Of a stretch of 64,000 nt of DNA, positions 3,851 through 59,521 are shown piece after piece (position 1 is the stretch's first letter; every line of letters begins with the position of its first letter). Below the pieces are notes generated by a model that worked only from the letters and a program-made list of their open reading frames with translations, was not told the origin of the DNA and made no database searches. Made by a program: the position numbers and the translations under genes. The DNA comes from Schmidtea nova (taxonomy: Eukaryota): assembly GCA_044892505.1 (NCBI GenBank), contig CM097882.1, positions 124,558,001 through 124,622,000 of the forward strand, given 5' to 3'.

Positions 3851-4942
3851 GGGTTTATTATAGAAATTATTAGATTAAAGAGAGTCATATTAAAAACTAT
3901 CCGGATAGTAGAAATAGTAATAGCGATTGAGAAAAATAAAGTCGTCGACGATTAGAGTTTCATAGAGTTAAAAGGTGCGCACCAGAGGATTAAAAGGATA
4001 CGAGAGACAAGCTGATGATGTAGTCTAAATATTGACTGAAAAAAAAGCAGCATACATAGTTAAAGTAAAATAACAAAGGATAGAACGGAGTAAAAAACGA
4101 ACAAGTAAAAGGGGTATAAACAAGTAAAATAAAAGTGTTATAAACAATTAAAACAATAGCTGTACGATCAAGTAAAAGTTGTAGGAACGAGTAGATAATA
4201 ATTGTGTGAAATAAAACCTAAGACAAATAAACTAAGAATCATCGACTAGAAAAAATAGTGAACACGACAAGAGTAAAACAACTAAATTCGAGAGAATTCG
4301 AGATATCATAAGAAAAGACATAAAGACCACAAGAAGCAAGGATATAGAATAATTCAAAAGAATTACATCGATTTAGAGAATTAAGTGTCAAGAAACATAA
4401 TTACCAAAATAATAAAAGCAACAAAACACTGAAAAGTTCAAAGTGATGGAGTTAATAAAATAATTGTCTAAGATGAATTACGACGAGGTAAAGTACAATT
4501 AATATTGCACTACAGATAGAATAGACTAAAATCAAGGGAGAAAGATAACCGAGCCATAAAATACCCATAAATATTCGAAAAAACTAAAGAGCAGAATTTA
4601 TTTAATAATAATTATTTGAAGGAACTGGGTGAGCGGTGACAGCCACCCAAATGGTTAAAAGTGTATTTTATTTTGTAGATTTCAATCAAACAACGAACCA
4701 AGCAACCAATTCAAGTCAACAACAACCAACAAGTCAAACGAACAGAAAGCTACAGATACAGAACAAGTAAAACATAATTCAAGAGGACAAACCCAAGTCA
4801 AAAAAAAAAGCCAACGGTAAATTGAGTAACCGTACCAAAATCGGAATCCAAATCAGGAAAGAAATTCGCCATCATTGAGAATCTTTACAGAAAAAAATTC
4901 AGACCCAGTTCTAAATTTAACCAATTATTAGACAAATCCGTA

Positions 4943-7897
4943 GTGGAAAAAATTAAAAGAGCACGATCAGTATCAATAAAAAGACCCTATCAAATAACAA
5001 ACGATAAATACACCCAGAATACAAACAGTGAATCAAGCATCAAAGGAAACAGAGAAATTACAATAAACACCCAATTCTATCAAAAGACAACAAGAACAAG
5101 CATCGAAGATAACTCTAGGAAAAGCCAAGCACAAATTGAACAACCAGAAAAGTATACGGAGAATAAAACAACAAATTGGGAAACAAGAAACAGGGAAACA
5201 AGAAATAGGAAAATGAATATCGAAAGAAACGGAAATGAGTCAAATACACCAGCAACGTCAATAGCACAAAAGAGAAAAGAATATCGAGAAAGATTTCAAG
5301 GCGAACCATTCAACGGAGACGCTAGTAGATTAGAAACGTTTTTAAAAGAATTTGGTGTATTCGTCGAGGTATATAGATGGGATCCAGAAACAATAATCGG
5401 TCGAATCCCACTATACCTTAGAGACAGTGCGTTAGACTTGTACCTAGAAGCCCAAGGAGGAACCAAACCATTTAAAAATTGGGACGAAATAAAAGAATTC
5501 TTCCGACAAACATTCGGAATAAACAAAGTATTAAGCCAGGCATTCGATGATTTTTCAGCAAGAAGGCAGAGGAAGAACGAGTCAAATGCGGTATACGCAA
5601 GCGAACTAAGGAAATTATCCAAACTAGCATTCAACAGAGAAAACCCTATAAACGAAGAATTGATGACAGCAATATTTGTGCGAGGGTTGAGAAGGCCAGA
5701 TATTCGAGCTCAAGTGGGATGTAAAGGATGCCTAACAATTGACGATGCGCTAGAAATTGCAAATAGATATGAGTTACACATAGGAGTAAACGACATCAGA
5801 ATCGTAACAGTAACACCAAACGAATCGGAAGACGAAGGGAATCAAGTTAAGCCAAAGAAATCAAACCAAGGAACTGGGAACAGACAAACGAGGAAAGAAA
5901 ATAACGACGATAGAGGCAGCATCGAGAATAACCCCAGAAACAATAACACCCTGAACAACACCAAACAATGCCAAACATGTTGGAAATCCGGACATTCGAG
6001 TAGTGAGTGTTATAAAAATCAATTTTGCGAGAAGTGCAAGATGTGGGGACATTCTGAGAAAATATGTGGAATACGGGGATGCTATAGTTGTGGCAAATTA
6101 GGACATATAGCACGAAAATGTGGGACAAAAAATAATCTACAAGGAAACCAGCAGACCAATGGAAACGGAGTAAACAGCTATAATCAAAACAATAGTCTGA
6201 GTAACAACCCGAATGACAGAGAAATAAGACTAATGCAAGAAATCTTAAGGCTAAATGAGGTGATCAAAAAGAGGACAAGAATAACGCAACAACCAAAAAT
6301 CAACAAACTTACATTCATCGAACCAACACTAACAGAAGAAACACCACAAGAGAAACAACGTCGAGAATGGCTAGAGTTGCAATTAGATGAAGCAAGAATA
6401 GGAGAAGAACGTGGTAGCAAACTAAATGCGGATGAAGCTCGTATATTACAAGGAAGATTCCAAGAACGAAAGGAGCAATTTGAAGAAGTACTCAAACAGA
6501 TAACAGTCACAAGTGAAAAGGACGAATCCGCGAAATTCAAAGAAAATGGAAATGAACTAGCAAGAAAAATAGGGAGAATCAACATGATGACCAGTTGCCA
6601 ATCAGAACTACAAAAGCCAACAATCAAAGAAGCCCGTCAAGAAGAATTCACATGGAGTAAATTAGGAGGATTGCAGGCCTGTGACAACGAGGAACATTGC
6701 AGGAAGATAAAGAAAGAACTACTAAAAGCAGATATGTTGAAAATGGCGAATAGACGTAATAGTGCACAAAAGATAGAAGAATTATGGAAACAACAAGAAA
6801 AGAATAAACCAAGAATCAATATGCTAAGAAAAATAGAAACTAGGAATCAAACAGAACAGGACAGAAAAACCATAATTGAAAGCGAAATAATCGAAGAAAT
6901 GGGAAAGATAACAATAGATCAACTTGTCACGGGAAATAAACACAGCAAGCAGTCAGCAATAAACGATATGACAGAAGTCGAAAAGAGAAAAGAACAAACC
7001 AGAAACGCAGAAGGAAACAAAAATGAAAAGAAGGAAAAGAAAGGCCAACAAGAACTAAAAGAAGAGTATCTATACAAAAAGGACAAATGGTGTAAATGCT
7101 GCCAAAGACAAGGACACTTAGAAAGCAGCTGTTTCAAGAACAAAATATGTACCAAATGTGGAAGAAAAGGACATGGAAAGAAAGTTTGTGGTATTCAAGG
7201 ATGTTACAACTGTGGGAAAAAAGGACACATTTCAAGAAATTGCCGGAATCGCAAGAAACAACAGGAAAACCAAAATCAGCTGGACAAAATCAATAACAAA
7301 ATTATGTCAAAGACAACCAAAGAAACGAAGCAATACGAATTCATAAATAATAATAACAAACATGTAGAAGGATATTACGAAAATCAAATTGTTCAAAACG
7401 ATCACAAGAAGAAACGAAACAAAGTGACTCACGAGTATGTACAAATATGTTACCAATGCAGACAAAGAGGACATTTAGCATTCCAGTGTACCATAGCAAG
7501 GAATCAGGCGAAAATTAATCAAAACAACAAGGAATACGCAAATCAAGGAAAACAAAAGCAGTTGAGGAACATAAACAAATGGGAAAATAATAGAGTCCAC
7601 ATGTTGGAAAAGCAAGTAAACAATCTCAGTAGAATACAAAAAGTCTTGATGGAAGAAAATAAAAGTCAAGAGACACAATTTACTAATATGATGCGATTAG
7701 CTCTCATTTATCAACAAGAAATTATTATACAAAAAGAAATAATAACCAGATCTCAAAACCAACTAATGTCAGTAATTACTCGATTTAAAGAGAAGGAAAA
7801 TCGAAACTATCAAGAGTCGGCATCAGAATACGTCGAAATTGCAGAAATTGTAAAAGCTCTCACCGCTAACAATGAGGTGGTGAAGAGGGAAGTGTAG
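4943..7897 (+). CDS. gag: Retrotransposon gag-like polyprotein with 7 CCHC zinc knuckles and coiled-coil regions (likely ATG at 5213)
   Basis: Capsid-like segment (PFNGDASRLETFLKEF...QRKNESNAVYASELRKL...FVRGL) and seven CxxC-x4-H-x4-C motifs. Confidence 0.85.
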   Translation: MEKIKRARSVSIKRPYQITNDKYTQNTNSESSIKGNREITINTQFYQKTTRTSIEDNSRKSQAQIEQPEKYTENKTTNWETRNRETRNRKMNIERNGNESNTPATSIAQKRKEYRERFQGEPFNGDASRLETFLKEFGVFVEVYRWDPETIIGRIPLYLRDSALDLYLEAQGGTKPFKNWDEIKEFFRQTFGINKVLSQAFDDFSARRQRKNESNAVYASELRKLSKLAFNRENPINEELMTAIFVRGLRRPDIRAQVGCKGCLTIDDALEIANRYELHIGVNDIRIVTVTPNESEDEGNQVKPKKSNQGTGNRQTRKENNDDRGSIENNPRNNNTLNNTKQCQTCWKSGHSSSECYKNQFCEKCKMWGHSEKICGIRGCYSCGKLGHIARKCGTKNNLQGNQQTNGNGVNSYNQNNSLSNNPNDREIRLMQEILRLNEVIKKRTRITQQPKINKLTFIEPTLTEETPQEKQRREWLELQLDEARIGEERGSKLNADEARILQGRFQERKEQFEEVLKQITVTSEKDESAKFKENGNELARKIGRINMMTSCQSELQKPTIKEARQEEFTWSKLGGLQACDNEEHCRKIKKELLKADMLKMANRRNSAQKIEELWKQQEKNKPRINMLRKIETRNQTEQDRKTIIESEIIEEMGKITIDQLVTGNKHSKQSAINDMTEVEKRKEQTRNAEGNKNEKKEKKGQQELKEEYLYKKDKWCKCCQRQGHLESSCFKNKICTKCGRKGHGKKVCGIQGCYNCGKKGHISRNCRNRKKQQENQNQLDKINNKIMSKTTKETKQYEFINNNNKHVEGYYENQIVQNDHKKKRNKVTHEYVQICYQCRQRGHLAFQCTIARNQAKINQNNKEYANQGKQKQLRNINKWENNRVHMLEKQVNNLSRIQKVLMEENKSQETQFTNMMRLALIYQQEIIIQKEIITRSQNQLMSVITRFKEKENRNYQESASEYVEIAEIVKALTANNEVVKREV

Positions 7898-28620: not shown

Positions 28621-29839
28621 TCAATTTTATTCAGGATCAGAAGACACTAATCAAAGTTTTGTATTTTAACTGGAGAATTATTCCACTATTTATTTATTTT
28701 CAAATTTTACACACTAAACCCAATTTGCAATAATATTTAAACAATAACATTTTTTAAGAACCTAATCAAAATTAAATTAAATAATGCCATTTCCAAATAT
28801 TATCCACAGCTTAATAATGATTTAAATGATTAAATAAAATTATAATGACAGACAGGATGCGCTTATAAATTGTTTTAATATTTCCGACTCCCGAAATACT
28901 TTAGATTAGAGTAATAATTTTTTAATAATACGTTATAATTAATTGTAAGACAGCAGTTTCATATAATTACTTTGGTTGTCAATTATCATTTTCTGCTAAT
29001 TTTTTTACCAGGTCAATGTTGATAATTTGTCTTGAAGAGATTTCTCTTAAAAGTTTTTATTTTTAAATTTATTCATGAATTCAGTCATTAGTGATGAAGA
29101 TAAATTTTTAAAAATAATTTTTTTTCAAATAATTTAGACAAATAGAAAACTTTATTATTCCTTTTTATAGTGAATTTTAAATTCATTTGCATATAATATT
29201 TGAGTGTCCCATCATATCCTTGTAATTAGTAACTGCATAGGACATGCAATAGCACAAGATGGTAACAAGTCACTCTTAACCTTTTTAAATTTTACTTTAA
29301 CTTAAGACCTACAGTTAACTTCCAAAATCCTTTAATTTATATCAATAGTTTTCATAATTGTATAACTATATATCAAAATTTATTTTTGGGTTTTTCGAAT
29401 GTTAAGTACACGATATTTCGGCACAGCCTTTATAAAGTGTGTATTTTTTTCCAAGTCGATGTTGATAATTTATAAAGTGTGTATTTCGAAATACACACCT
29501 TAAAAAGGCTATGATGAAATATTGTGTACATATCAACCAAAGAATTTTGATCTATAGTCATGCAATTATATAAATTATCAATATAAATAAAAAGAAATTA
29601 AATGCGAAGGTAAAAGAAAATCCTTTAAACAGATTTTTAATAACTGAGAAATGTTTCTTTGAATTTAGTACAATTGAGTAAAAAGATATCGACACTTAAA
29701 TGAAAAACAATTATTTATTATAATTTACGAAGAAATTATTATTCGACTTCTTGATGAAGACAATAGTTTTAATTACTTATCGTTTCTTACTGAATAACCA
29801 CAAACCCTGAAAACCGTTACAATGAAATTAAGAACAAAT

Positions 29840-34084: not shown

Positions 34085-34247
34085 TTTGATCTTTTTTTAT
34101 TATTATCAATAATTCTCATAATGACTATAGATCAAAATTTTTTTTTATAAACAATAACACAATATTTCGGCACAGCCTTTATACACACTTGATAAAGGCT
34201 GTGCTGAAATATTGTGTTATTGTTTATAAAAAAAATTTTGATCTATA
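34085..34247. mobile_element. Foldback MITE copy (same family as 20337-21015 and the degraded copy at 29405-29600)
   Basis: Same GACTATAGATC...GGCACAGCCTTTAT / GATAAAGGCTGTGC arms; flanked by N gaps. Confidence 0.8.
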
Positions 34248-43466: not shown

Positions 43467-44606
43467 TTCCCCTTTAAAACCGGAGGTTACATATTTACAA
43501 AAATAACGTGTTCTGTACATATTTAAATTCTGTTTTGTGTTTGTGTACTGTCTTTAATAACTTACAATAAAAAATAAAATTATTTAACGATCTTATGTTT
43601 GCTTGCTATGTAGTGTTGTGTTGTTTGAGGCATTGGATGTATAGCTTTTCATATGGGTGATAATCGCGTTTTTGTCAAATTCTTTTATTGCGTTTCTGCT
43701 GTTGAATGTTATATGCTTTTTCTTTGTTGGTGTTTCGTTGTGTGAAGGGTTGCATGGAGGGTTGCATGGAAGTTGTTGATTGTGGTAATATGGTTTTGTT
43801 CAACGTATATTTATTTTTATTTTGTTGTTGTTCTTTATTATTGTGGCCATGTTTTTGTTGATTTCGAATATTTTGAATGGGTTTTCGTATGCGTCTTCGG
43901 AACCTTTTGTGGATGACTTCTTTACTAGTAAATAATCGGTTGTTAGTATTATCTTGCCATCGTTCCCTGAGTTTGTTCTCTTTTTAAGTATTCCTGTTAA
44001 TTTGTTTTCGATGTTTTTAATGTTCTCACTATTTTTAGTTGTTATTTGTTTATTTATTTCTTCGTTGTTTTTTATATTTGCTTTCTCGTCGAAAGTTACC
44101 GGTGCGATAAGTTTGTCGACTTTTTCCAGTAGGGTATTTATTTCTGGGCCATCAGTTTTTGTTTTGATTTGTTGTTTGTTGGACCCATTTGGATAACGCC
44201 AATGTCTATTTTTGAATTGGTTGTCGCCATGGTTTCGACAGTTTCTTTGTTTGTGTTTGTGTTTTCCGTTAGTGTTTTATTTCGGCAGTCTATTGTGAGG
44301 TTGTAGTGTGCCAGAAAGTGAGATCCTATTATTGATTGTTGAACATCGGCGATTATGAATATCCAGCTGTATTTCTTTGAATTAATTGTTAAGGTTAGGG
44401 TGTGTTCACCAAATGTTTTATATTTGTGCCATTGGCTGCGGTTAAATGTTTTTCTGCGTTTTTTGAGTTTTTGTGCAGGTAATGGGGTAGTAAGGAGATC
44501 AAAGAACCTGTGTCAATTAGAAATTCTGTGTTGTTTGAGTGCACCATGAATGTATTGTTTTTGTCACCAAATGTAGTTGCTATTATCGGTGACATTTTTA
44601 GTTTCC

Positions 44607-45413
44607 CTATTCCGTTTTATGGAAGTTGCAGGGCTTAGTGCATTTAAAAGCCTTTTCACCAAATTTGTATTGAAAATAGCAATGATTTTCATTTATTAAA
44701 TTGTTTCTCGCTTGTTTTTCTGGACTTTTGTCTCGATAATTATTGTATCTGTTTAGCGAGTTTGACCTGTTTATGTTGTATTGATTTGGTGAATGGTCTC
44801 TGTTGTAGTTTTGTCTGTTGTATCTTTCAGGAATTGAATTTGAATTGTTATTTTGCCTGTAGCATTTTTCTTTAATTTCGGCCAGTTCCGCTTTAATTTG
44901 TTTGTTTTCGACTATGATTTCATCAAATTTGCCTATTAGGGTGTTTAATAGTTTGTTCATGGTTTCATTTGTTTCGCTATATTTGTTGTTTGGTTGATTA
45001 TTGTAGTTTGTTTCGTTTTTGTTGTAGTTTTGGGTGCTGCAAGTAGTCGGATAAATTTCTTCGTTGATTTTATCCGCTATGTCAGCGAGTGTTTCGACAT
45101 CGGCGTTTTTGCTGGCAGCAAGGATCCGCCTGATTTCTGGTGGCATTGATCTCAAAAAGAATTTTTTAACTAGTTCATTTGAACCTGAGTTTGTGATATT
45201 TGGTTGCAAATATTCTTGTTTTTGTTTTAATTGTCTGAGGAAATCGGTGGGTTTATTGTCACCTAAGTGAGTGTTGTTGAGGCAAGATTCGAGCATTTGC
45301 CGTCTGTTTATTTTATTTTTGTTCGTCAGGATGTTGCACAGTTTGTTAAAGGGGTCGTCATCCTTAGAAATTTCTTCTATTTGGTCCGTAATTTCATTTA
45401 ATTTGTTACTGGA
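44607..45413 (-). pseudogene. gag: Gypsy gag, 3' part (continues from 61138-60846)
   Basis: Removing the Polinton and one TSD copy gives ...CSNIIAALSSNKLNEITDQIEE...; C-terminal CYFQYKFGEKAFKCTKPC motif. Confidence 0.85.
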
Positions 45414-45469
45414 AGTAGAGTAGGGGGAGCGCCCAAGAACAGGAACAGACCCCCCTCCCCCCAAAAAAA

Positions 45470-46268
45470 TTTTTTTTGTTTAAATGAAGTGAATTTTTTA
45501 AATTTTTTATTTTGTTTAAATGAAGTGAATTTTTGAATTTTATTTTTTTTGTTTAAATGAAGTCAATTTAATTTATTATTTTGTTTAAATGAAGTATTTA
45601 TTTTATTTTTATTTATTTATTTTTATTTATTTTTATTTATTTTTAATTTATTTTTAATTTATTTTAATTTATTTTAATTTATATTTATTTTTAATAATTT
45701 ATTTTTAGTTTATTTTTAATAATTTATTTTTATTAATTTATTTTTATTTATTTTTAGTTTATTTTTATTTATTTTTATTTTATTTTTATTTATATTTAAT
45801 AATTTATTTTAATAATTTATTTTAATAATTTATTTTTAATTTATTTTTAATTTGTTTTTAATAATTTATTTTTATATTTATTTTTAATTTAATTTTTAAT
45901 TTATATTTATTTATTTTAATTTATATTTAATAATTTATATTTAATAATTTATATTTATTTTTAATTTATTTAAATTTAAATTTATTTTTATATTTTCGGT
46001 TCAGTTTGAATAATAATAATTATNNNNNNNNNNNNNNNNNNNNNNNNNNNNNNNNNNNNNNNNNNNNNNNNNNNNNNNNNNNNNNNNNNNNNNNNNNNNN
46101 NNNNNNNNNNNNNNNNNNNNNNNNNNNNNNNNNNNNNNNNNNNNNNNNNNNNNNNNNNNNNNNNNNNNNNNNNNNNNNNNNNNNNNNNNNNNNNNNNNNN
46201 NNNNNNNNNNNNNNNNNNNNNNNNNNNNNNNNNNNNNNNNNNNNNNNNNNACTTAGAAAAATTTTTAA

Positions 46269-46499: not shown

Positions 46500-46885
46500 T
46501 TATAAATTATAAATGTCGTTATAATATGCTTTACGCATTTCTGACATTAAGATATGCACCGAATGATCTCTTTTAAAATCGTGACAGCATGCACATCCGT
46601 TTACACAGGATACTCTTAGTGAATCATTGCAAACTATGCAATTTTCAACGCACTTGACTCCAGCTCCTAGCACCATATCATAGTGAATCTCAAGTAATTG
46701 TTCGATATTGATCCCAGTAAGCTTGTATAGCTTATGAACCAATAACTCTGGTGCACAGTAATCCAAAGAATCTTTTATTTTTGGATATAATTCTTGAATT
46801 TTCTTCAGGATCACTTCAAATAAATAAGCTAAATAAAAAATATTAATAATATAGTTAATTAAAAATAATACTTACTTTTAGACAT
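46500..46885 (-). CDS. Cys/His-rich protein (112 aa), two exons (46885-46876, 46828-46500)
   Basis: ATG TCT AAA A|GTAAGT...TTTAG|CT TAT supplies an ATG and keeps the frame; CxxxCxxC...CxxxCxCCH...H..H. Confidence 0.75.
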
Positions 46886-46920
46886 TTTCAAAAATATGGA
46901 TTTGTAAAATAACAATGTAT

Positions 46921-47403
46921 TTAAACAAAATTAAATAATAAATCGAGATATTTTTCATCAATTAAATCATTATTGATTAATGAATTAATATAATTTTTAA
47001 TTTCATTTACTTGATTAAAATAATCCAATGTTTTAATTCCTAATATTACAACTTTTCCACTTGAAAAAATATTAATACAAATTGGGTTATAATTTATTAA
47101 TCTCAAAGCTGGAAATATTTTGGGTTCGTACCAGCACTCTGTTTTATTTTGCAATTCGTATAAATTTATGGATTTACCCATATCCAGTGTTATAGTGATC
47201 GATTGAATTTTTAAATCGGAAATTTTATATTTCAAATCATCTGGTTTTAACGGTTGCTTACATCCCATTACGCGACATTTTCCCGATCTGAAAAATAAAA
47301 TAGGGTACTTCCCGCTCCTATCTATAACTTGCTGAGGTTTCCCAACAGGAAATATCATGTTTGGAACTAAACACTTGCCCTTATAATTAATGTTACTTAT
47401 CAT
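46921..47403 (-). CDS. TATA-binding protein (TBP)-like protein, viral
   Basis: Two TBP-type repeats: ILFFRSGKCRVMGCK and DLKIQSIT...YEPKIFPALRL...INIFSSGKVVILGIK, versus TBP LIFSSGKMVCTGAK and DFKIQN...YEPELFPGL...LIFVSGKVVLTGAK. Confidence 0.85.
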   Translation of the reverse strand: MISNINYKGKCLVPNMIFPVGKPQQVIDRSGKYPILFFRSGKCRVMGCKQPLKPDDLKYKISDLKIQSITITLDMGKSINLYELQNKTECWYEPKIFPALRLINYNPICINIFSSGKVVILGIKTLDYFNQVNEIKNYINSLINNDLIDEKYLDLLFNFV

Positions 47404-47459
47404 TTTTATAAATTGAATAAATATAAACAATATTAAATTAATTAATTAATTAAATAAAA

Positions 47460-48083
47460 ATGGAATTAAGAAATGATGCAGTTTATCAAATAGTGGGCCC
47501 GAGTGGTAGTGGAAAAACATTATTTGTATGTAAATTGTTGCAATCAAAAATGTTTAAATCTAAATTCAATAAAATTTACTGGCATAGAGGAGCTGATGAA
47601 GAACATGGACTGACTCAAGATCAATTCTATAAATTAAAAATGACAATTATAAAAGGGTTTGATAAAAACTGGTCATCTAGATTACGACAAGGCGATGTTA
47701 TAATTATCGATGATTTGTACCAAGAAGCAAATAAAGAAAAAGATTTTAATAATTTATTCACAAAAATTAGTAGACATTTAGGAGTTACTGTAGTTTTCAT
47801 TACTCAAAATTTATTTCATCAAGGTGGTAGTCACAGAACTCGTAATTTAAATGTTCAATACTTGGTTATATTCAAAAACCCAAGAGATGCTACAATTATT
47901 GATTTTCTAGCAAGACAAGCTTACCCTAATGATCGGAAATTCTTAATTAATTCATTTCAAGATGCTACTAAAGTTCCTCATGGATATTTATTCTTTGATT
48001 TTACTCAACAATGTCCTGACGATTTACGTATCCGAACGGATATATTTAACGAAAAAGGAGTCACGGTTTATAAACAAAATTGA
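47460..48083 (+). CDS. A32/FtsK-like genome packaging ATPase
   Basis: Walker A GPSGSGKT, Walker B VIIIDD, ISRHLGVTVVFITQNLF. Confidence 0.93.
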   Translation: MELRNDAVYQIVGPSGSGKTLFVCKLLQSKMFKSKFNKIYWHRGADEEHGLTQDQFYKLKMTIIKGFDKNWSSRLRQGDVIIIDDLYQEANKEKDFNNLFTKISRHLGVTVVFITQNLFHQGGSHRTRNLNVQYLVIFKNPRDATIIDFLARQAYPNDRKFLINSFQDATKVPHGYLFFDFTQQCPDDLRIRTDIFNEKGVTVYKQN

Positions 48084-48104
48084 AAACAAATAAATGAAAT
48101 AATA

Positions 48105-48266
48105 ATGTCATTTAAAAAAGTAATTGTCAAGTTAAATAAAGAAGCTGTTCAAAAAGCTGATCAAAAACTACTTAAAAAAGTTGATCAAAAATCTAAATTA
48201 GTTAAAAAAGTTGTCAAAAAGGTTGGTAAAAAAAAGAAACAAGTAAAGAAGTGGATAAAATTATAA
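48105..48266 (+). CDS. 53-aa lysine-rich small protein (candidate DNA-condensing core protein)
   Basis: MSFKKVIVKLNKEAVQKADQKLLKKVDQKSKLVKKVVKKVGKKKKQVKKWIKL; 21 of 53 residues are Lys; fills the gap in a compact gene cluster. Confidence 0.7.
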   Translation: MSFKKVIVKLNKEAVQKADQKLLKKVDQKSKLVKKVVKKVGKKKKQVKKWIKL

Positions 48267-48296
48267 ACGAAATAAATATATACAAAAATCTTAATC

Positions 48297-48626
48297 ATGA
48301 AATTTGAACGTAGTTTACCGTATTTTAATGCTTTGGTTAAAGCTCCAACAAATAAGCGAATGATAATTTTACAAGCTTTCCCACCCTTTGTTATTGATGA
48401 TTTACTTGAAATCGTTTTTAATATTGTTCATGGTAATGTAAATATTAGTAGATCAAAGAAAATTGAACTACAAAAACATAAAAATTCACTTTTTTCATTA
48501 GTAAATACCAAAAATAGAAATCTTATGCGAAAAATAATATATAAACAAAAGGGTGGGTTTCTCGGTACATTAATTCCAATAGTATTATCAGCAATAAGCG
48601 CAATCTCATCTTTAAGAAATGGGTAA
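48297..48626 (+). CDS. Conserved small Polinton protein with an adenovirus pX-like C-terminus
   Basis: EIVFNIVHGNV core and QKGG|FLGTLIPIVLSAISAI, resembling adenovirus pX MRGG|ILPLLIPLIAAAIGAV. Confidence 0.7.
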   Translation: MKFERSLPYFNALVKAPTNKRMIILQAFPPFVIDDLLEIVFNIVHGNVNISRSKKIELQKHKNSLFSLVNTKNRNLMRKIIYKQKGGFLGTLIPIVLSAISAISSLRNG

Positions 48627-48688
48627 TAAAATTTCTGAACCGAATAAACATAATATAGATTTAAATATTTTAACAAATTGTTGTATTA

Positions 48689-49777
48689 ATGAAGAAAATC
48701 ATGAAGAATATAAAAACGATATGGACAAACCCAAAAGATCCCGATGGTTTTGGTTCAGTCAAAAAATTGGTAAAAAGAATAAAAAGTTCAAAGAATGAAA
48801 CTCAGAAATGGTTATCTGATCAATTGGCATATAGTTTAAATAAACCAATGTTGAAAAGATTTCCTACACGGAAATATAAAACTTTTGGGGGTAACGATTT
48901 ATGGTAAATGGATTTGATGGAAATGATTCCTTATTCTAAAATTAACAAGGGTTACAAATATATTTTGACTTGTATTGATGTTTTTAGCCGTTATGCACGA
49001 GCTATTCCAACAAAAACTAAATCTGCTAATGAAATGGCTGAGACTATTGAATCTTTATTTAAAGATGGGAAGCCACGTAATTTACAAACTGATTTGGGTA
49101 AGAAATGAAATTAAATTATTTAATTATTTATTTTTAATTTAGGAAAAGAGTTTTATAACAGCAAAGTAAAAGAAGTGATCAAAGGAATCAATCATTATTC
49201 TGTATTTTCTCAATTCAAAGCTGCTCATGTTGAAAGATTAATTCGTACTTTAAGAGATCGTTTGAAAAAGTATTTTGTGTATCAAGGTAACAAAACATGG
49301 ATAAGTGTTTTACCGAAAATTATTTTCAGTTACAATCGTTCACCGCATTCGGGATTAAATAAAATGAAACCTATCGATGTATATTCAAATAATAATTTTG
49401 ACGGATGGATAAAAGATAGATTAAAATCAATTAATAAAAAACCGAAATATAAAGTAGGTGATTATGTGAGAATGAGTAAAATCAGTGCTTCTCTCTTCAT
49501 CAAAAATTTTGATAGTAATATGAGTGATGAAGTATATCAAATCTCAAATGTTGATACTAATCAAAATCCTGTCATGTATACTATTTCCGATCATGAAAAC
49601 AATGTAATCGAAGGGAAATTCTACGAACAAGAACTTCAAGTTATTCCAGCTCCCACAGTTTTTAGAATTCAAAAGATTTTAAAAACCAAAACTGATGGGA
49701 AATATAAACAATATTACGTTAAATGGCATGGCTATGAAACTCCAAGTTGGATATCTGAAAAACAATTGATTAAATAA
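48689..49777 (+). pseudogene. int: Retroviral-type (rve) integrase with C-terminal chromodomain; one intron (49098-49142) and one premature TAA (48905-48907)
   Basis: DDE motifs W*MDLM, LQTDLG|KEF and HVERLIRTL; chromodomain YYVKWHGY...SWI; splicing GTAAG...TTTAG restores DLGKEFYN. Confidence 0.92.
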
Positions 49778-49782
49778 ATATT

Positions 49783-50820
49783 ATGAAAGAAAACCAGTTT
49801 TATATGATTTTGCCTAGCAATGCATGTCCTCTTATTTATCCTAATAATGAAGCTAGTAATTTTAATGTAGAATTTCAAAATCCGATTTATTTAAATAGTA
49901 ATGACGATTGGGAAGTTGCTTTGATTGATTTTACTTTTGTGTATAATTTATTTCCGTATTATAGTAATTCTTTTATTCAAATTGAAACTAAAAGAGAAAT
50001 TCAAGAAATTAGTTATTTGAGAATTAATAATCAAAATAAAACAATTCAAGTTATAGTTTCTCAACCTAGTTCAGACACTGATGTATTTATTGAAAAATAT
50101 AATTATTTAGTGATTGTTTGCCCACATGTTCCATTTAAAAGTACATTTCCAGATCTTGAACATGCAAAAAGTTTTGGATTGGAAAATATATCAATTACAA
50201 GTGAAAATGATCATTGTCGTTTAAAATTACCAAAATTCACGAATGATAATAGTCTTGAACAATTTGGAATTTTAATAAATTATGACATTAAAACTGTTAA
50301 TGATTATTATTTTCAAGATGAATTATTCATAACGTCATTACCGGAATTACAAGGATATTTAATGAAAATTAATCCATGGCCATTTAAAGAATTGAAACTT
50401 GTCAATAATGAATTGGTTAAAATTATTCTTCAGGATAATATTTCAAAAATTACTTTTGATTCAAATTTAACCAAATCTCTGGGTCTACAGAAACAAACAT
50501 ATACTGATACAGAAATAATTGGTGTAAAAATCCCCAAAATTTTACAACTTCATCAGCAAATGTTCATTTACAGCAACATTATTGAACCAGTAACTGTTGG
50601 AGATGTACGAGTTCCCCTCCTTAAATCAATTTGGATCAAGAAATATGACCAAGGTGAAGTTGTACAAATTGAAATAAAGAATCCAATGTATTTGCCGATT
50701 TCAACATCAACTATAAACAACATTGAAATCAATATTCGTGATGACAGTGGAAAATTAATTAAATTTTCAAAAGATACAAAGACTCATTTGACTCTACATT
50801 TTCGTAAAATAAATGATTAA
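49783..50820 (+). CDS. Minor capsid (penton-like) protein 1
   Basis: FYMILPSN...WEVAL...FIYSNIIEPVTVGDVRVPLL...NNIEINIRDDSG...LTLHFR. Confidence 0.88.
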   Translation: MKENQFYMILPSNACPLIYPNNEASNFNVEFQNPIYLNSNDDWEVALIDFTFVYNLFPYYSNSFIQIETKREIQEISYLRINNQNKTIQVIVSQPSSDTDVFIEKYNYLVIVCPHVPFKSTFPDLEHAKSFGLENISITSENDHCRLKLPKFTNDNSLEQFGILINYDIKTVNDYYFQDELFITSLPELQGYLMKINPWPFKELKLVNNELVKIILQDNISKITFDSNLTKSLGLQKQTYTDTEIIGVKIPKILQLHQQMFIYSNIIEPVTVGDVRVPLLKSIWIKKYDQGEVVQIEIKNPMYLPISTSTINNIEINIRDDSGKLIKFSKDTKTHLTLHFRKIND

Positions 50821-51838
50821 AAAAGATTTTTATGTTAATTTACCAGGCAATTCTTGTCCATTGACACATCCCAATAATAAAGCTGGAAAATTCAATGTTG
50901 AATATCAAAACCCAATTTATTTGGATGGTAGTTGGGAAGTTGCTCTTATGGATTTTACTTTTGTATACAATGAATTTCCATTTTATAATAGTTCAAGTAT
51001 AAAATTTATTAGAAATGAATTACATTCTAGTTATGAATATTTCAATTTTAACCAACAAAAGAAAGAATATGATATAAGTCACGATTCTAATTATTATTTA
51101 ATGTATATTGATGGTAATATTTTAAATGTAAATTGTAAATATTTTCCATTTCAAATAATATTTGATAGTGTTGATGAAGCTAAAAAAAAATTAGGGTTTC
51201 AAGAAAAAGCTGTGACATTTAATGATGAATTAAACAAAATTAAAATTCCAGCAAATGAAAATAAAAAACTTGATGATACTATACGATTTACTATAACTTA
51301 TACTTTTCCTGTTGAATACACAGATAATTTCAAAGACGATTTAATAATAAATAATCTTGCTGAATTATCTGATCAAATTGAAACTTTTTATCCACATCCA
51401 TTTAAAGTGATTGATATTAAAGAAGGAAAATTAATCAAATTAATTCTTGAAGATGATATAACTAGTGTAAAATTTAGTAGGAATTTAGCAAATTCATTAG
51501 GATTAGTTGAACAAGAATTCTTTGACAAAATTATTGATGGCGTATATTATCCACAAGTTTTAAAACTTCATCAACAAATGTTCATCTATACGAATATTAT
51601 TCAACCAATTCTTGTTGGTGACATGTCAGTTCCCCTATTGAAATGTGTTTGGGTTGAAAAACATGAAAAGGGTGATTTGGTTCAAATTGTTGAGAAAAAT
51701 CCAATGTATTTTCCGGTCAGTTCCACATATATAAACAATATTGAAATCAATATTCGTGATGACAGTGGAAAAATAGTTAAATTTGCAAAAGAAGACAAAA
51801 CTTACTTGACATTACATTTCCGTAAAATAAATGAATAA
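50813..51838 (+). CDS. Minor capsid (penton-like) protein 2, tandem paralog
   Basis: Same N- and C-terminal motifs as 49783-50820 with a divergent middle. Confidence 0.88.
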   Translation: MIKKDFYVNLPGNSCPLTHPNNKAGKFNVEYQNPIYLDGSWEVALMDFTFVYNEFPFYNSSSIKFIRNELHSSYEYFNFNQQKKEYDISHDSNYYLMYIDGNILNVNCKYFPFQIIFDSVDEAKKKLGFQEKAVTFNDELNKIKIPANENKKLDDTIRFTITYTFPVEYTDNFKDDLIINNLAELSDQIETFYPHPFKVIDIKEGKLIKLILEDDITSVKFSRNLANSLGLVEQEFFDKIIDGVYYPQVLKLHQQMFIYTNIIQPILVGDMSVPLLKCVWVEKHEKGDLVQIVEKNPMYFPVSSTYINNIEINIRDDSGKIVKFAKEDKTYLTLHFRKINE

Positions 51839-52238
51839 TCCAGATATTATCAGTTTATATAGCAACAGCCAATCAGGTGGAGAATTACCGTATTTTGTAG
51901 GTAAGCAATATGGAACTGGATGGTTGAAAACGATAGGTAGATTTGCATTACCAATTCTTAGACGTATTGGAAATTTTGGTATGAAAACTGCCAATGATGT
52001 GTTAAATAATAATTCAAAGATTTTACCTGCACTAAAATCCAATGCTATTTCTGAAATTAAAGATTCATTGCCCGATGTGATTCATCATTTGCCACAAGTA
52101 ATTAGTAAAGTAACTGATGTGTTTAACGAAAATAAAACTGAAAATAAACAAAATGGCGGAATTCTTAAACGTAAAAGAAATATGAAGAAACATATAAACA
52201 AAAGAATGAAAGGATATGGTACAATTTTTGAAAAATGA
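51831..52238 (+). CDS. Small Polinton core/membrane-active candidate protein (PZ-like)
   Basis: QSGG and QYGTG motifs followed by the amphipathic WLKTIGRFALPILRRIG; basic C-terminus with QNGG and KGYG. Confidence 0.65.
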   Translation: MNNPDIISLYSNSQSGGELPYFVGKQYGTGWLKTIGRFALPILRRIGNFGMKTANDVLNNNSKILPALKSNAISEIKDSLPDVIHHLPQVISKVTDVFNENKTENKQNGGILKRKRNMKKHINKRMKGYGTIFEK

Positions 52239-53461
52239 TTAGTGCAAAATCTGAATTATGTCTTTTTGATAGACCATCTCCTCAAGCAGTAATTGAACAT
52301 GGTGCATTTGAAGATATTTACCCAACAAATTCAATTACAGATGCTGGGACATCATCTATTCAATTTTACATCAACGGATCTCAAACTGAATATTTAGATT
52401 TGAACGATACTTTACTATCTCTTCAGGTCAAAGTTGTAAACAAATCGGGTGAAAATTTAGGATTGGATGCTGATGTTACTCCCAACAATTTCTTTTTCCA
52501 AACTCTTTTTAAAGAAGCAGAATTAATTTTCAATTCTACTAAAGTTGAAGGGGGAAATGATACATTTACACACAAAGCCATGATTGAAACTATTCTCAAC
52601 TACAATAGTGATACAAAACACACATCTTTAACTCCAATAGGATACAATGACCATGATCTTACTAGAAAAGCATGGATTGCAAAATCAAAACCATTTTCAA
52701 TTTGTTCTCCATTACATTTCGATTTCATGGAACAACCCAAATATTTATTACCAGGTGTTAGTGTTCAAATTAAATTGACGAGATCAAATCCATCCAATAG
52801 TTTGACAAGCACAAAAATTGAACCTATAATTGAATTATTAGACGCAAAATTAATGGTTAGAAGAGTTCGAGTAGAACCATCAGTTTATGCTGGGCATCAA
52901 ATTGGACTTGGTACAAGAAATGCAATTTATCCAATAAGAAATAAGGAAGTTGTAGAATTTTCATTGCCAATGGGTTCTTCTTCGTTTTATAAGGAACAAA
53001 TCTTTGGCGATAGACGATTACCAAACTTTATTCTTGTAGCATTTCAAGGAAATAAAAGACATAGTGGTTCTTTTACTGAAACATATTCTATTTACGATTA
53101 TTTTAATGTCAAATCATTAACTTTATCGAAAGGAAGTGATTATCGTGAAAAATATTCTCAAGATTTTGAAAATGATAATTGTAGTACTAGTTATATGCAA
53201 TCTATTGTCCGTAACCTTGGTTACCTGAATAAGAGTATGAATTGTGGTATTTCTTTATCAGATTGGAAAAGCAAATATCCTTTTTTCACCTTCGTTTTGG
53301 CTCCAGATTTTGACCTAAATCAAAGTCAATTACCTCAACAAGGTAATCTAAGACTTGATATTAAATTTGGTACACCATTGACTGAATCAGTTTCTGTAAT
53401 TGTATATGGAGTTTTTGAAAAGGAATTACAAATTACAGCTAATAGAACAATATTGATTTAA
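52235..53461 (+). CDS. Double jelly-roll major capsid protein (PY)
   Basis: KSELCLFD...IQFYI...YLDLNDTLL...LHFDFMEQPKYLLPGVSVQIKL...GNLRLDIKFG...VIVYGVFE pattern and 408-aa length typical of Polinton MCP. Confidence 0.9.
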   Translation: MISAKSELCLFDRPSPQAVIEHGAFEDIYPTNSITDAGTSSIQFYINGSQTEYLDLNDTLLSLQVKVVNKSGENLGLDADVTPNNFFFQTLFKEAELIFNSTKVEGGNDTFTHKAMIETILNYNSDTKHTSLTPIGYNDHDLTRKAWIAKSKPFSICSPLHFDFMEQPKYLLPGVSVQIKLTRSNPSNSLTSTKIEPIIELLDAKLMVRRVRVEPSVYAGHQIGLGTRNAIYPIRNKEVVEFSLPMGSSSFYKEQIFGDRRLPNFILVAFQGNKRHSGSFTETYSIYDYFNVKSLTLSKGSDYREKYSQDFENDNCSTSYMQSIVRNLGYLNKSMNCGISLSDWKSKYPFFTFVLAPDFDLNQSQLPQQGNLRLDIKFGTPLTESVSVIVYGVFEKELQITANRTILI

Positions 53462-53512
53462 TTGAAAATTATTGGTTTAATATAAACTAATTTTAATAAA
53501 TTAATAAAGTAA

Positions 53513-53891
53513 ATGAAGTAAGATTTATTTTAAATAATTAAATTTTATTGATTTTAGTTCAATTCAGGTAGATCAGATTGCTAGAAAATTGATTGGATCG
53601 GAATTTCTAGGAGTTTTTCCTCTAGATAAAATACCGTATATAGATGTGAATAAAGCATTGATTGTCAATACTCAAACATCAAATCTCAAAGGCGAACATT
53701 GGCTTGCAATTTATAATAAACCCGATAAAATATACGTGTTTGATCCAATGGGATTTTATTATCCACCGATATTATTGAAAAAATTATCGTCAATGTTAAA
53801 ACCAATAGAATATAACAGAATTCGATATCAAAATCCTATGACAAAAACCTGTGGGCAACATTGTTTAGCTTGGCTAAAATATATGAAATAA
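53513..53891 (+). CDS. Adenain-like cysteine protease (112 aa), two exons (intron 53518-53557)
   Basis: ATG AA|GTAAG...TTTTAG|T TCA gives MNSIQVDQIARKLIGSEFLGVFP; catalytic GEHW, FDPMG, YQN and TCGQHC intact. Confidence 0.92.
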
Positions 53892-54004
53892 AATTTTTTA
53901 TTATAAAACGACTTTTATTATAAAACGACTTTTTCTATTTTTGGTATTCACTAATACAAAAGTGAATTTTTATGTTTGAATTTGTTAAATTATAGTTGAA
54001 AATA

Positions 54005-54665
54005 ATTTTAATATTGTAAAATATTAAATTAATTTTAAATTACATATTGTAAAATATTTAATTAATTTTAAATTACATATTGTAAAATATTTAATTAATT
54101 TTAAATTACATATTGTAAAATATTTAATTAATTTTAAATTACATATTGTAAAATATTTAATTTTAAATTACATATTGTAAAATATTTAAATTAAATTATA
54201 TTTAAAATAATTTCGTTTAAATAAACAACATTTTTAACAACAAGCCAACTTAAGTAAGTAAGTTTAATTTTTTATGAATATTTTTTAATTTTTTCATTAC
54301 AGATTTTTGAAATTATGCCAAACATTATTATGCCAATGAAATTTTCAAAGAAAATTATACCAAACAATGTTATACCAAACAATATTATGCCAAACAATGT
54401 TATGCCAATGAAATTTTCAAAGAAAATTATACCATCGATACTTCATGTTAAATGTAAGTATTTATATATTGACGAAATATATTATTATCAATTAAATGTT
54501 TATTTTTATAATTGATAGATTTTTATATGAATTTAATTAATTTTTATAATTGATAGATTTTTATATGAATTTAATTAATTTTTTATAATTGATAGATTTT
54601 TATATGAATTTAATTAATAATCGATAGATTTTTATATGGATTTAATTAATTTTTATAATAAATAT
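54005..54665. repeat. Internal non-coding spacer with 33-bp (about 6x), 15-bp-based and 38-bp (about 4x) tandem repeats
   Basis: ATATTGTAAAATATTTAATTAATTTTAAATTAC at 54011, 54044 and onward; ATTGATAGATTTTTATATGAATTTAATTAA at 54511, 54549 and onward. Confidence 0.9.
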
Positions 54666-54887
54666 ATTTTATAAATGATATATTTATATATTATTTTTAA
54701 AATATATTTAATGTAAATAAGAAAAAATCAATTAAAGAACAAATAAATTAAACAAGAGTTTATTCATGAAAATCATTAATTTTCCAAATAGGTTTTATCA
54801 CGTTTTCGGTTTGTTTAAATCCTTGTAAGATAATTTGAATTTGATACATTGAATTTTCATCTAATTTGCCTAAATCTGTTTCTTTTT

Positions 54888-55290
54888 TTACAGTTCATAT
54901 ATGTGAATTCCTCGTTGAATTGAATGTTCTTTATTTATTAGCATTAAAATTTCTGATAGATTCTTTCTATCAATTTCCCCGATTTTTCCAACCTGAATAT
55001 TGTATTGACATTGTTTCAATGTAACAGGTTCCTGTAAATAATATTAATTAGATTTTTATAATTTTTTAATTATTTACTTTGAATGAATATTTGATCGGAT
55101 ATTTCAAATACTCCATCGAGTATTGTAGAAATTGAACTGGTGGATTCAATGCCAAATTAGATGAAGAAATAGGATTTTCCTCAAGTATAATCTTCATTAT
55201 TTCTTGTTTTGTCATTCTTTTCGATTCTAGAAAAATAAATTAAAAAATAATCATTTAAAATTAATTAATCTTACTTTTAAGTTGATACAT
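54888..55290 (-). CDS. Hidden three-exon Polinton gene (102 aa, unknown function)
   Basis: Exons 55290-55275, 55226-55078 and 55031-54888 joined by 48- and 46-nt GT-AG introns give one open frame starting at ATG. Confidence 0.65.
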
Positions 55291-55573
55291 TTTTTAATGA
55301 TTATTTTAATTTTATAGGTCGTTTATATAGAAATTTTTAAATTATTTTGACCAATCATAATCAATAAATATATATTACGATATTTTGAAATGAATGTGTG
55401 TATACACACTTGATATACATCATTGATATTTTATCTTAATTTTTATCTTAATTTTTATCTTAATTTTTATCATTATTTTTATCATTATTTTTATATTATT
55501 TTTAAAATTTATAGGCAATTTATATCAAAAATATTGCAACTCCACAATTCATGATGTAAAATGCCATGAATTA

Positions 55574-58500
55574 ATGGAAAGATATTATGCATACCCTCAT
55601 AACTGTAAAACCTCCTACATTTGTCCTTTTTGCAAATCTACTTCGTCCTCTTCGTATATTGACTTTTACAATACTCATTGCGATCATTTAGATCAATTTA
55701 AAACATCTAAAAAATCAATTTTTAAATTACCGCTTAAAAGAAAATGTAATGAAAATAATTCAATCCCAATCAAAATTAACAAGTCAGATCTTACTGATGA
55801 TATTTCTTCAGTTGATCCTTCAGTTGTTCCTTCAGTTGATCCTTCAGATATAGTTGTAATTTCTGATGATGATGATGATGACATTCTTGGTAATGATACC
55901 ATTCCTGATGATAACATTCTTGATAATGATACCATTCCTGATGATGATAACATTCTTGATAATGATACCATTCTTGATGATAACATTCTTGATATAAATA
56001 TTCTTTCTGATTTTGTGGTTGTAGACACTTTTGATCCTATCGATAATATTCAAATTGGTGGTTCTTTTGATAAAATTTGTGACGATAAATACTCTTTAGT
56101 TCCTGAAGTACAGGTTGGTGGCTCCATTTTACCTGTTGTTAAATTTGATTTAAATAAATCACATGCTATAATGAAAATGATTGTAACTAACTTGAATTTA
56201 AAAAGCATGTTTGTACCTGATAATTTAATTAATAAATTAAATAATGTAATTGAAACGATGGGAACGGTTAAAATTCAATTTTGCATCGAAGTTGAGTTTG
56301 AAAAAGATGGTGCTTTTCAAACTATAGTTATTTCTAACTCTGCACAACCTGTCACAGATACCTTTATAGACGATGGCATTAATATTCTTAACGAAAAAAT
56401 TACATTAATTAATAATAGAGGTAGTAACTGGATAATTAATAAAATTAATGAAATCCATTTCATATTAACAAAATTTTCTGAGATTAGTAAGTTAATAGGT
56501 TACGGTGGTATTGACACTCCTGAATCTTTAAAGTCAAAACATTGTGTTGCAAATGTTCAGAATTCTGATGACTTGTGCTTTATATATTCTGTTTTAGTAA
56601 TTATTAAATATGATGAGATATCTGGTCGTAAAAATAAACATAGGATCAGTAATTACAATCTTTCAGATGTTAACTTTAGTCCTTCTGATTTGCCTATGCG
56701 TCTTTGCAATATCCCAAAGTTTGAAGCTAAAAACCCGGGATATGCGATTAATGTACTTTCATATGATGAATCTGGAATTCTAGACACTAAGCCTGAAGTT
56801 TTCAAACATCCGTGTATTGACATAATTCATAGGTCGAAAGTAGTAGACGGAATTCCTATTAACTTGATTCTTTTGCAAAATGGTGACTCTTTTCATTATA
56901 TAGCAGTAACCAATCTTGATAGGCTTTTAAATCTTGACAATAAATCAATATCTGGTACTCGTATTCAAAGTTTATGGTGCCATCGATGCTTGAATGGGTT
57001 TAGATATCAAGATTCTTTTGTTCGTCATCAAGAGTTGTGTTCTAAAAATCAATTAGGCACAACTCTATATACTTTGCCTAAAAATCCTTATTTGACATTT
57101 AGTAATTGGGGCAAAACAATTACTCCACCTTTTGTAGTTTACGCCGATTTTGAGGCAATCTTACCTGCTGATGATAAGTACTTTCAAAGACATGTCCCAA
57201 TATCTGCCGGTCTTTTACTTGTAAATAATTTCACTGGTGAAAAGATTTACAAGAGTTTCTTAGGTCTTGATTGCGTTACTAATTTTCTTGCTGAAATTAA
57301 CAATATAGGTGAAGAAATTGTTTTTCCTTTTTATAAAAACAATTACAAAAAACCACTTATTATGACATTCGATAATAAAAGATCTTTTGCCTCATCTACT
57401 AATTGTTATCTTTGTAAAAATCGTTTAGTTAATCCGGTTAGAGACCATGATCACTACACTGGTGAATTCTTGGGAGCTGCTTGTTTAAAATGTAATCTTA
57501 CTAGACAGATTCGTAAGGAACTACCGGTTATTTTTCATAATTTAAAAGGGTATGACATGCACCATATTCTTAAATATGGTTTGGCTAATTTTTCAACTTG
57601 GAAAATATCATGTATTCCAACAACTAGTGAAAAATTCCTTACTTTGTCTGCAAGAGTCGGCGATTTAACAATTAAATTCATCGATTCTTGTCAATTTATT
57701 AACTCCAGTTTAAATGATGCGGTTAAAACATTGACTTCATTACCTTTGACTAGATCTGAATTCACCGGGACTATTGTTGACTGTAAGGGTATTTTTCCTT
57801 ATGATTTTGCAACATCTTTAGAAATTCTTAACAACACTTATGAATTACCACCAATCTGGGAGGGTGTTAAGCAGGCTGAATATGACAAGGCATTAGTTAT
57901 TTGGAGGGAATCCCAGTGTCACACTCTGTGTGACTATATGATGGTCTACCTTAAACTGGATGTTTTTCTTCTTGCTGATTTCTTTCAACAGTTTAGGGCT
58001 AAATCTATAGCTCACAATAAACTTGAGCCTTTGAATTTTTTGGGGATTCCAGGTATGTCGTGGGCTTCTGCGCTTATTACCTTGGATGAACCTATTGAGT
58101 TGCTCCAGGATATGGAGATTTATAATTTTTTCGAAGGGGGGATCCGTGGTGGTTTGACATTTGTCAACAAGCACCATGTAGTATCCTCCGAAACGACTGA
58201 ACTTTTATACATTGACATAAATAATTTATACGGGTGGGCTTTAAGTCAAAAATTACCTTATGGTGAATTTAAATGGATCACTGATGAGAATAAATTAAAT
58301 AAATAAATTAAATTAATGGATACTGATTTGGCTATTTTGACTTATGGCGTGACTTTTGAAGTGGATCTTGAAATACCTTCAGAAATTCACGAAAAATTAA
58401 ATGATTTTCCGGTAGCAGCAGAGAAAATGTGTGCTCCGGGTTCAAAGGTTGAGAAGTTAATGCTGACGCATTATCCAAAGTTCAACTATGTTGTTCATTG

Positions 58501-59521
58501 GAGGCTTCTCAAGCTTTTTGTTTCTTTGGGTGTTAAAATAACACGAGTTCATCGGGCTGTTCAGTACAATCAGAAACCCATTTTTAAAAAATATATAGAT
58601 ACAAACACTGAACTTAGGGCAGCATCTTCTACAGCTTTAGATAAAAACTATTACAAACTCTTGAATAATAGTCTTTATGGAAAAACGGTTGAAAATCTTA
58701 AGAAACGACTCAATTTACGACTATGTAATTCACCATCAAAACTGATTACATATACTTCAAAACCTACCTTTAGAAAAACTTATAGAATTGACGATGACCT
58801 AGTTTCTGTCTTACTTAATAAGGACTCTGTGTGTTTAGATAGACCCAGTTACATTGGCCAAACTGTACTGGATTTATCTAAACTTAGGATGTATCAACTG
58901 CAGTATGAAGAATTACAAAAATATCGTAATGAATTCAACTGCGAAATTAACATCGTTGCTGGTGACACCGATTCATTTTTTCTTGAGATTAGAAATTGTA
59001 GGTTAGATGTTCTGTTACCTGCGAGGATAAGAGATAACTTACTTGACACTTCTAATTATGATCCGAATCACCCATTATACAGTAAGAACCTAGATTCCGT
59101 CATTGGTAAATTCAAAGACGAGAATAAAGGATTCAAGTATGATGAGTGGGTATTCCTTAGACCAAAGTGTTATAGTCTTTTAGGCGATGAAGAGTGCATT
59201 AAGGCTAAGGGTATAACATTGAAGGATACTAAACTGAATCATCAGTCGTATCTGGATTGTTATAATAATAATTCAATAGTTTCTGTTGATCAGTCGAGAA
59301 TAGTTAGTAAGAATCACCAACTCTTTACTAATAAATATTCGAAAATTGCCTTGACTAATCTTGATGATAAAAGACTTTGGGTTGATAAAAATGAAAGTCT
59401 TGCATACGGACATTATAAGGGATGTGGCTCGTTTATAGACCAATCAAAAGATCAGGTTGGTGTTCCAGTTTCAGATCCAGCTCTCAATTCAAATTATATA
59501 TCCAATTCAGATTTGTATTGA
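55574..59521 (+). pseudogene. polB: Protein-primed family B DNA polymerase (terminal protein, OTU-like, exonuclease with endonuclease VII-like insert, polymerase); one in-frame TAA at 58304-58306
   Basis: VYADFE, FHNLKGYD, YLKLDV, DHDHYTG...CLKCN, YIDINNLY, KLLNNSLYGK, AGDTDS, LRPKCY; both ORFs lie in the same frame. Confidence 0.95.

Follow-up and report, generated by a model that had tools for sequence, protein, structure and literature searches.

The stretch of DNA analysed here (64,000 nucleotides, referred to as the window) raises the question of what is encoded on the minus strand immediately beside the gene of a protein-primed polymerase (pPolB), where no long open reading frame is present. 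Protein-primed replicons usually encode a protein that binds single-stranded DNA (SSB). The evidence presented below points to a spliced gene that probably encodes a tail-less SSB resembling those of the T7 type and acting as a helper of pPolB, the copy in the window being broken.

The Maverick-type element and its spliced gene

Judged by its gene content, the region 46500-59521 holds a Maverick/Polinton-type element. Its host would be a eukaryote of AT-rich DNA, probably an animal. Through an alignment of its pPolB, 64 metagenomic loci were fetched and searched for the gene. The main features of the element are as follows.

55390..59521, plus strand: pPolB (PF03175, E 8.1e-9, above cut-off)
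55390-55399, plus strand: candidate micro-exon of pPolB, followed by a candidate intron at 55400-55514 (115 nt, swollen by a 12-nt tandem repeat)
58304-58306, plus strand: in-frame stop of pPolB, within a short duplication
46500..53891, no single strand: rest of the Maverick, with a small spliced ORF, TBP-like gene, A32-type ATPase, pX-like gene, integrase, capsid-sized genes and protease
49098-49142, plus strand: integrase intron, 45 nt; the alignments with L007 and L010 run through the site unbroken
46921-47403, minus strand: TBP-like gene (PF00352, E 1.3e-16)
46500-46885, minus strand: small spliced ORF, 112 codons long and rich in Cys and His, without a match in Pfam or in the 64 loci

The A32-type packaging ATPase (PF04665, E 1.5e-6) and the adenovirus-type protease, whose gene contains an intron (PF00770, E 3.1e-5), score above the cut-off. 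The integrase scores below it for both Chromo (E 3.5e-4) and rve_3 (E 0.04), is 59-60% identical to the same gene in the related contigs L007 and L010, presumably carries the catalytic motifs that we recognize in it, and is broken by an in-frame stop and a frame change. Two of the capsid-sized genes are of minor-capsid and one of major-capsid size, labels that we assume from size and order; no Pfam match to jelly-roll capsid proteins was found in the element, and these genes have orthologues in related contigs. The TBP-like gene also occurs in L007, L010, L031, L032 and L034, and a TATA-binding factor may be supplied by the element itself. Near 58304, the stop in pPolB was considered as a possible intron site and rejected, since the sequence there shows the short duplication and no GT or AG. 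Neither terminal inverted repeats nor a target-site duplication was found around the element; its left flank contains an N gap that extends to 46250. Frames resembling retrotransposon gag flank the Maverick at 4826-7897 (plus strand; PF03732 and PF00098) and at 43600-45479 (minus strand; identified by eye, no Pfam match), and a short MITE-like inverted-repeat element with arms of 47-59 nt is present in several copies (20384-21000, 29391-29446 and 34135-34247).

Head-to-head with pPolB, the initial annotation had placed a three-exon gene running from an ATG at 55290 to a stop at 54890-54888 and encoding 102 amino acids. Its coordinates were reproduced, with exon 3 now extended.

55275..55290, minus strand: exon 1, a 16-nt micro-exon that carries the start codon; free of the 39 listed variants
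55227..55274, minus strand: intron 1, 48 nt, GT..AG, 10% GC, phase 1; contains in-frame stops
55078..55226, minus strand: exon 2, predicted to form the N-terminal arm and the first strands; matches profile positions 9-40 with 19.9 bits
55032..55077, minus strand: intron 2, 46 nt, GT..AG, 9% GC, phase 0
54760..55031, minus strand: exon 3, predicted barrel strands, capping helix and C-terminal hairpin; stop at 54762-54760, two breaks in the window copy
54925..54929, minus strand: frame break 1, where the family match leaves the frame
54881..54889, minus strand: frame break 2, in a single-base run, below which only one frame is open
54759..54764, minus strand: AATAAA overlapping the exon 3 stop, a putative poly(A) signal
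55291..55389, no strand: gap of about 100 nt between the divergent start codons, with a minus-strand TATA-like box at 55329

The gap may be a two-way promoter of the SSB-like gene and pPolB; an internal Met in exon 2 offers an alternative start. The introns had been described as of compatible phase and of the size class of the other introns of the element. The latter agrees with the lengths of 40, 45 and 47 nt found elsewhere; as to the former, each intron keeps the frame, but the phases differ. Four genes seem to open with a micro-exon of 5-16 nt followed by an intron: the protease at 53513 (40-nt intron), the small ORF at 46885 (47 nt), the SSB-like gene at 55290 (48 nt) and, as a candidate, pPolB at 55390 (115 nt). 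Another GT..AG stretch, of 45 nt, precedes an open frame of 15-nt repeats at 54258-54515 (plus strand), with no upstream start codon seen.

Several observations support splicing. A strict short-intron pattern (short AT-rich GT..AG stretches) occurs twice in 54700-55430; 1000 trinucleotide shuffles average 0.09 occurrences, and four of them reach two. A blind short-intron scan over the element recovered both introns of the gene, together with sites in the integrase, the protease, the small ORF and one unexplained place, and short-intron donors number eight in 13.4 kb inside the element versus three in 47.8 kb outside it. Among 29 models, made up of 28 alternative GT/GC..AG introns and one unspliced reading, intron 2 ranks top, scoring 57.9 versus 33.3 bits and leading the alternative introns by at least 24 bits; exons 2 and 3 meet between profile positions 40 and 41, and L010 is uninterrupted across the site. 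The pieces of exon 3 are likewise colinear with the profile, covering positions 41-73, 77-87 and 102-136 in order. Intron 1 stands on weaker ground and exon 1 is beyond the reach of the profile test, since both lie outside the conserved domain; in other copies intron 1 shows nine listed substitutions and one length change, none at its GT or AG.

Variation was taken from four DNA runs belonging to a single study (three samples at most), which contain many diverged copies of the element. Above break 1 the spliced frame holds 16 of the 39 listed substitutions, ten of which are synonymous, compared with 19% expected (p=1.8e-4) and with three and two in the shifted frames. Substitutions are denser in the introns (13 in 94 nt) than in the exons (21 in 434 nt; p=0.004), with none at a GT or AG. 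These p-values are optimistic because the variants are common to related copies and are not independent events. On this sequence evidence the gene appears to be of the spliceosomal type, its GT-AG introns keeping a conserved frame, and the spliced frame is under selection, which upholds the head-to-head three-exon gene first proposed.

The protein family and its predicted fold

The suggested tblastn comparison returned L007 and L010, both near-complete elements with the same gene set as the window; a third, cut homologue in L012 was found later by profile. The conservation of frame in relatives envisaged earlier was also found: the L010 homologue is a single intronless open frame of 189 amino acids, and the protein P0217 has one open frame that is 53% identical to the window over 75 residues spanning both breaks. 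L007 (11152-11194) and L012 (2648-2689) have one intron each, with a GTATTT donor and at a site different from those of the window.

A profile search of 1.84 billion representatives (E<=0.001) yielded a family of 82 proteins. The match of the window tail to this profile is slightly circular because the search seed held 32 tail residues, which does not apply to the tblastn matches. The family alignment comprises 69 rows (L007, L010 and 67 of the 82 proteins) and no rows from the window; it omits 15 proteins (fragments plus two long repeats), and P0217 is outside it. Of 80 scored homologues, 17 start at position 22 or 28 of the profile; intron-truncated gene calls may account for some of them. 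Four loci longer than 10 kb with a distant pPolB gave no family match, which counts against generality. The position of the gene varies: it adjoins pPolB in the window and in L012, and in L007 and L010 it lies beside the TBP-like gene or close to it. The idea of a conserved head-to-head layout with pPolB was discarded, as it is absent in all three related contigs. At the end of L010 (13477-13977) there is a ubiquitin-conjugating enzyme gene (PF00179, E 1.7e-12), and in a more distant element a small gene without a Pfam match lies between pPolB and TBP (L034:2730-3350); its product, which we take to look PC4-like, may be an alternative ssDNA binder.

Sequence searches gave the family no name. 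Four scans of viral_contigs returned no relative, a word-based search with exon 3 no match, and Pfam no family for the three gene pieces; neither the 22 Pfam families listed with 69 members as queries (E<=0.1) nor the 25 PHROG families listed out of 36 include an SSB family, and the best PDB hit of the family profile had an E of 0.27. An Atlas search gave leads below 0.9 for L010 and no usable match for the family member P0146. The ENA contigs that carry P0146 and a pPolB, P0016, are both 20066 bases long and may be identical.

In the structural comparison that had been proposed, two intact relatives were modelled as OB-fold barrels, and in both the four top structural neighbours belong to the T7-type SSB group, clearly above generic OB folds. 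A long capping helix right after strand beta-2 is the hallmark of T7-type SSBs (PMC5686142). It is present in the models, where strands 38-42 and 47-51 are followed by helix 55-68, and strands 60-64 and 69-72 by helix 76-87 (DSSP; the strand numbering is our interpretation of DSSP order and aligned ranges). The family is therefore predicted, from these two models, to have a fold like that of T7-type SSBs. An aromatic residue precedes the last hairpin in 84% of the 69 rows; the reference stacking aromatics are T7 Tyr158 and Enc34 Trp150, and hhalign places the family residue on Tyr158 without gaps, at a non-significant probability of 0.17%. Of the 74 homologues reaching the profile end, 69 stop within five residues, and only three have a net charge of -4 or lower in the last 15. 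Since the long acidic C-terminal tail is lacking, the family is described as working like a T7-type SSB and not as a member of that group.

The same OB fold could serve another job: the protein might coat DNA in general, anneal strands or act as a transcription factor, perhaps together with the TBP-like protein of the element, and its ligands would include dsDNA or RNA in addition to ssDNA. This is the main rival, because the tail-less Enc34 SSB binds dsDNA in addition to ssDNA (PMC5686142) and the family also lacks the tail; the proximity of the gene to the TBP-like gene in L007 and L010 points the same way, as does Kazlauskas 2016, which sees no relationship between the SSBs of protein-primed viruses and OB-fold SSBs (PMC4889955). 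It is nevertheless rather unlikely, given the T7-type ranking of both models and the adjacency to pPolB in the window and L012.

Frame breaks in the window copy

Near 54926-54927 all four runs, in most of their depth, show other copies with a length unlike that of the window; near 54883 a length difference is again seen in all four runs, in a minority reaching about 40% of the depth. Read with X at both breaks, the gene gives about 144 residues and a profile score of 92.0 bits, compared with 59.7 for the 102-residue model. The open stretch of about 44 codons noticed in another frame was found at 54894-54763, and the suspicion that the original protein was longer proved sound; the final 12 or so residues of the 102-residue product and its stop at 54888, on the other hand, lie past break 1. 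A third intron at that stop was rejected, as no fitting acceptor occurs at the usual distance and the family match runs on through the stretch. The window copy appears to be decayed and would yield a truncated product only.

Should both breaks be assembly errors, the gene would be intact here, with the same function. Break 2 does sit in a single-base run, and most of the depth disagrees with the window at break 1, but the integrase of this copy has its own in-frame stop and frame change and its pPolB a duplication with a stop, which fits ordinary decay and makes such errors unlikely. That the 102-residue product is a working protein, with the 44-codon stretch separate, is very improbable and largely refuted by sequence comparison: the letters of the window do encode it, and an AATAAA is found at 54939, but this signal lies inside exon 3, the product is without the most conserved part of the family (profile positions 102-136, including an invariant Gly), both breaks show length differences in other copies, and P0217 and L010 read through both. 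Chance open frames in AT-rich intergenic DNA, suggested by the lack of a long ORF, are refuted by the synonymous bias, the colinear family match and the intronless homologue, leaving this explanation a negligible probability.

Proposed role and comparison with known systems

As a decayed copy of a gene for a probable tail-less SSB, the locus suggests the following course of events in intact elements. Transcription of the gene would start back-to-back with that of pPolB, and the host spliceosome would remove the two host-sized introns. The element would replicate as linear DNA, pPolB displacing one strand, and the SSB-like protein would use its conserved aromatic and basic residues to coat this strand, which would be protected and kept from re-annealing, by analogy with phi29 and PRD1, in whose replication SSBs bind the displaced strand (PMC11886824 and PMC8276246, in the parts consulted).

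A broader, tentative proposal, to which we give less than even weight, is that this Maverick clade possesses an unrecognized tail-less T7-type SSB as a core replication gene, partly hidden by introns and sharing common descent with giant-virus SSBs. If so, a T7-type SSB would be paired with a protein-primed polymerase, contrary to the pattern in the consulted part of PMC4889955, one more replication gene would link Polintons to Nucleocytoviricota, and the tail-less SSB may also coat duplex DNA at origins. The consulted portions of PMC8502044, PMC10748475, PMC11161782, PMC10120064, PMC11296320, PMC6431247 and 10.64898/2026.10.13.758929 describe no Polinton SSB, and a search of openly accessible literature, with few supplements, returned no report of a Maverick SSB. 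The family offers a concrete, testable SSB candidate for Polintons, the T7-type fold having so far been reported for phages, giant viruses and mriyaviruses. Like the family, the 'Adintoc' proteins of adintoviruses are conserved in Maverick/adintovirus genomes with no assigned function (PMC8502044, in part). The family may be one of these unnamed groups; its motif had no match in the portion of the PMC8502044 supplement searched, which showed map labels.

Maverick-like elements with introns have been reported in dinoflagellates (PMC11957031, part consulted). The introns described here are host-sized and differ in site by lineage, with two in the window, one elsewhere in L007 and in L012 and none in L010; in small Maverick genes, such introns lead ORF-based annotation to miss or truncate the gene.

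Among known systems, the SSBs of phi29 and Bam35, PRD1 P12 and adenovirus DBP have, beside a protein-primed polymerase, the job proposed here for the family (PMC11886824 and PMC8276246, in part). None is among the structural matches listed, an absence that does not count against a relation to them; they are described as atypical OB-like or non-OB, the separation from OB-fold SSBs drawn by Kazlauskas 2016 having been softened to atypical OB-like folds in the later papers (PMC8276246 and PMC11886824). T7-like SSBs are placed in phages and giant viruses (PMC4889955, in part), and in Nucleocytoviricota and mriyaviruses (PEV_26) by the part of PMC11253617 consulted. The family models align with ASFV CP312R (8hw5/7yeq), a gp2.5-like SSB of Nucleocytoviricota, over 126-129 residues that include the N-terminal strands, and their best BFVD matches are giant-virus proteins, the unnamed ones presumably SSBs. 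At the sequence level the SSBs of Nucleocytoviricota and mriyaviruses do not match the family. To our knowledge, neither group uses pPolB. With T7 gp2.5 (1je5), Enc34 ORF6 (5odk/5odl) and DUF2815 (4klk, 4jg2), 101-109 residues align at an rmsd of 2.7-3.5, and both sides share an OB barrel, predicted in the family, in which a long capping helix comes early; at 6-12% identity, the family differs from these T7-type SSBs in its smaller size, extra N-terminal strands and arm, absence of the acidic C-tail, intron-containing gene and location beside a protein-primed polymerase in a eukaryotic element.
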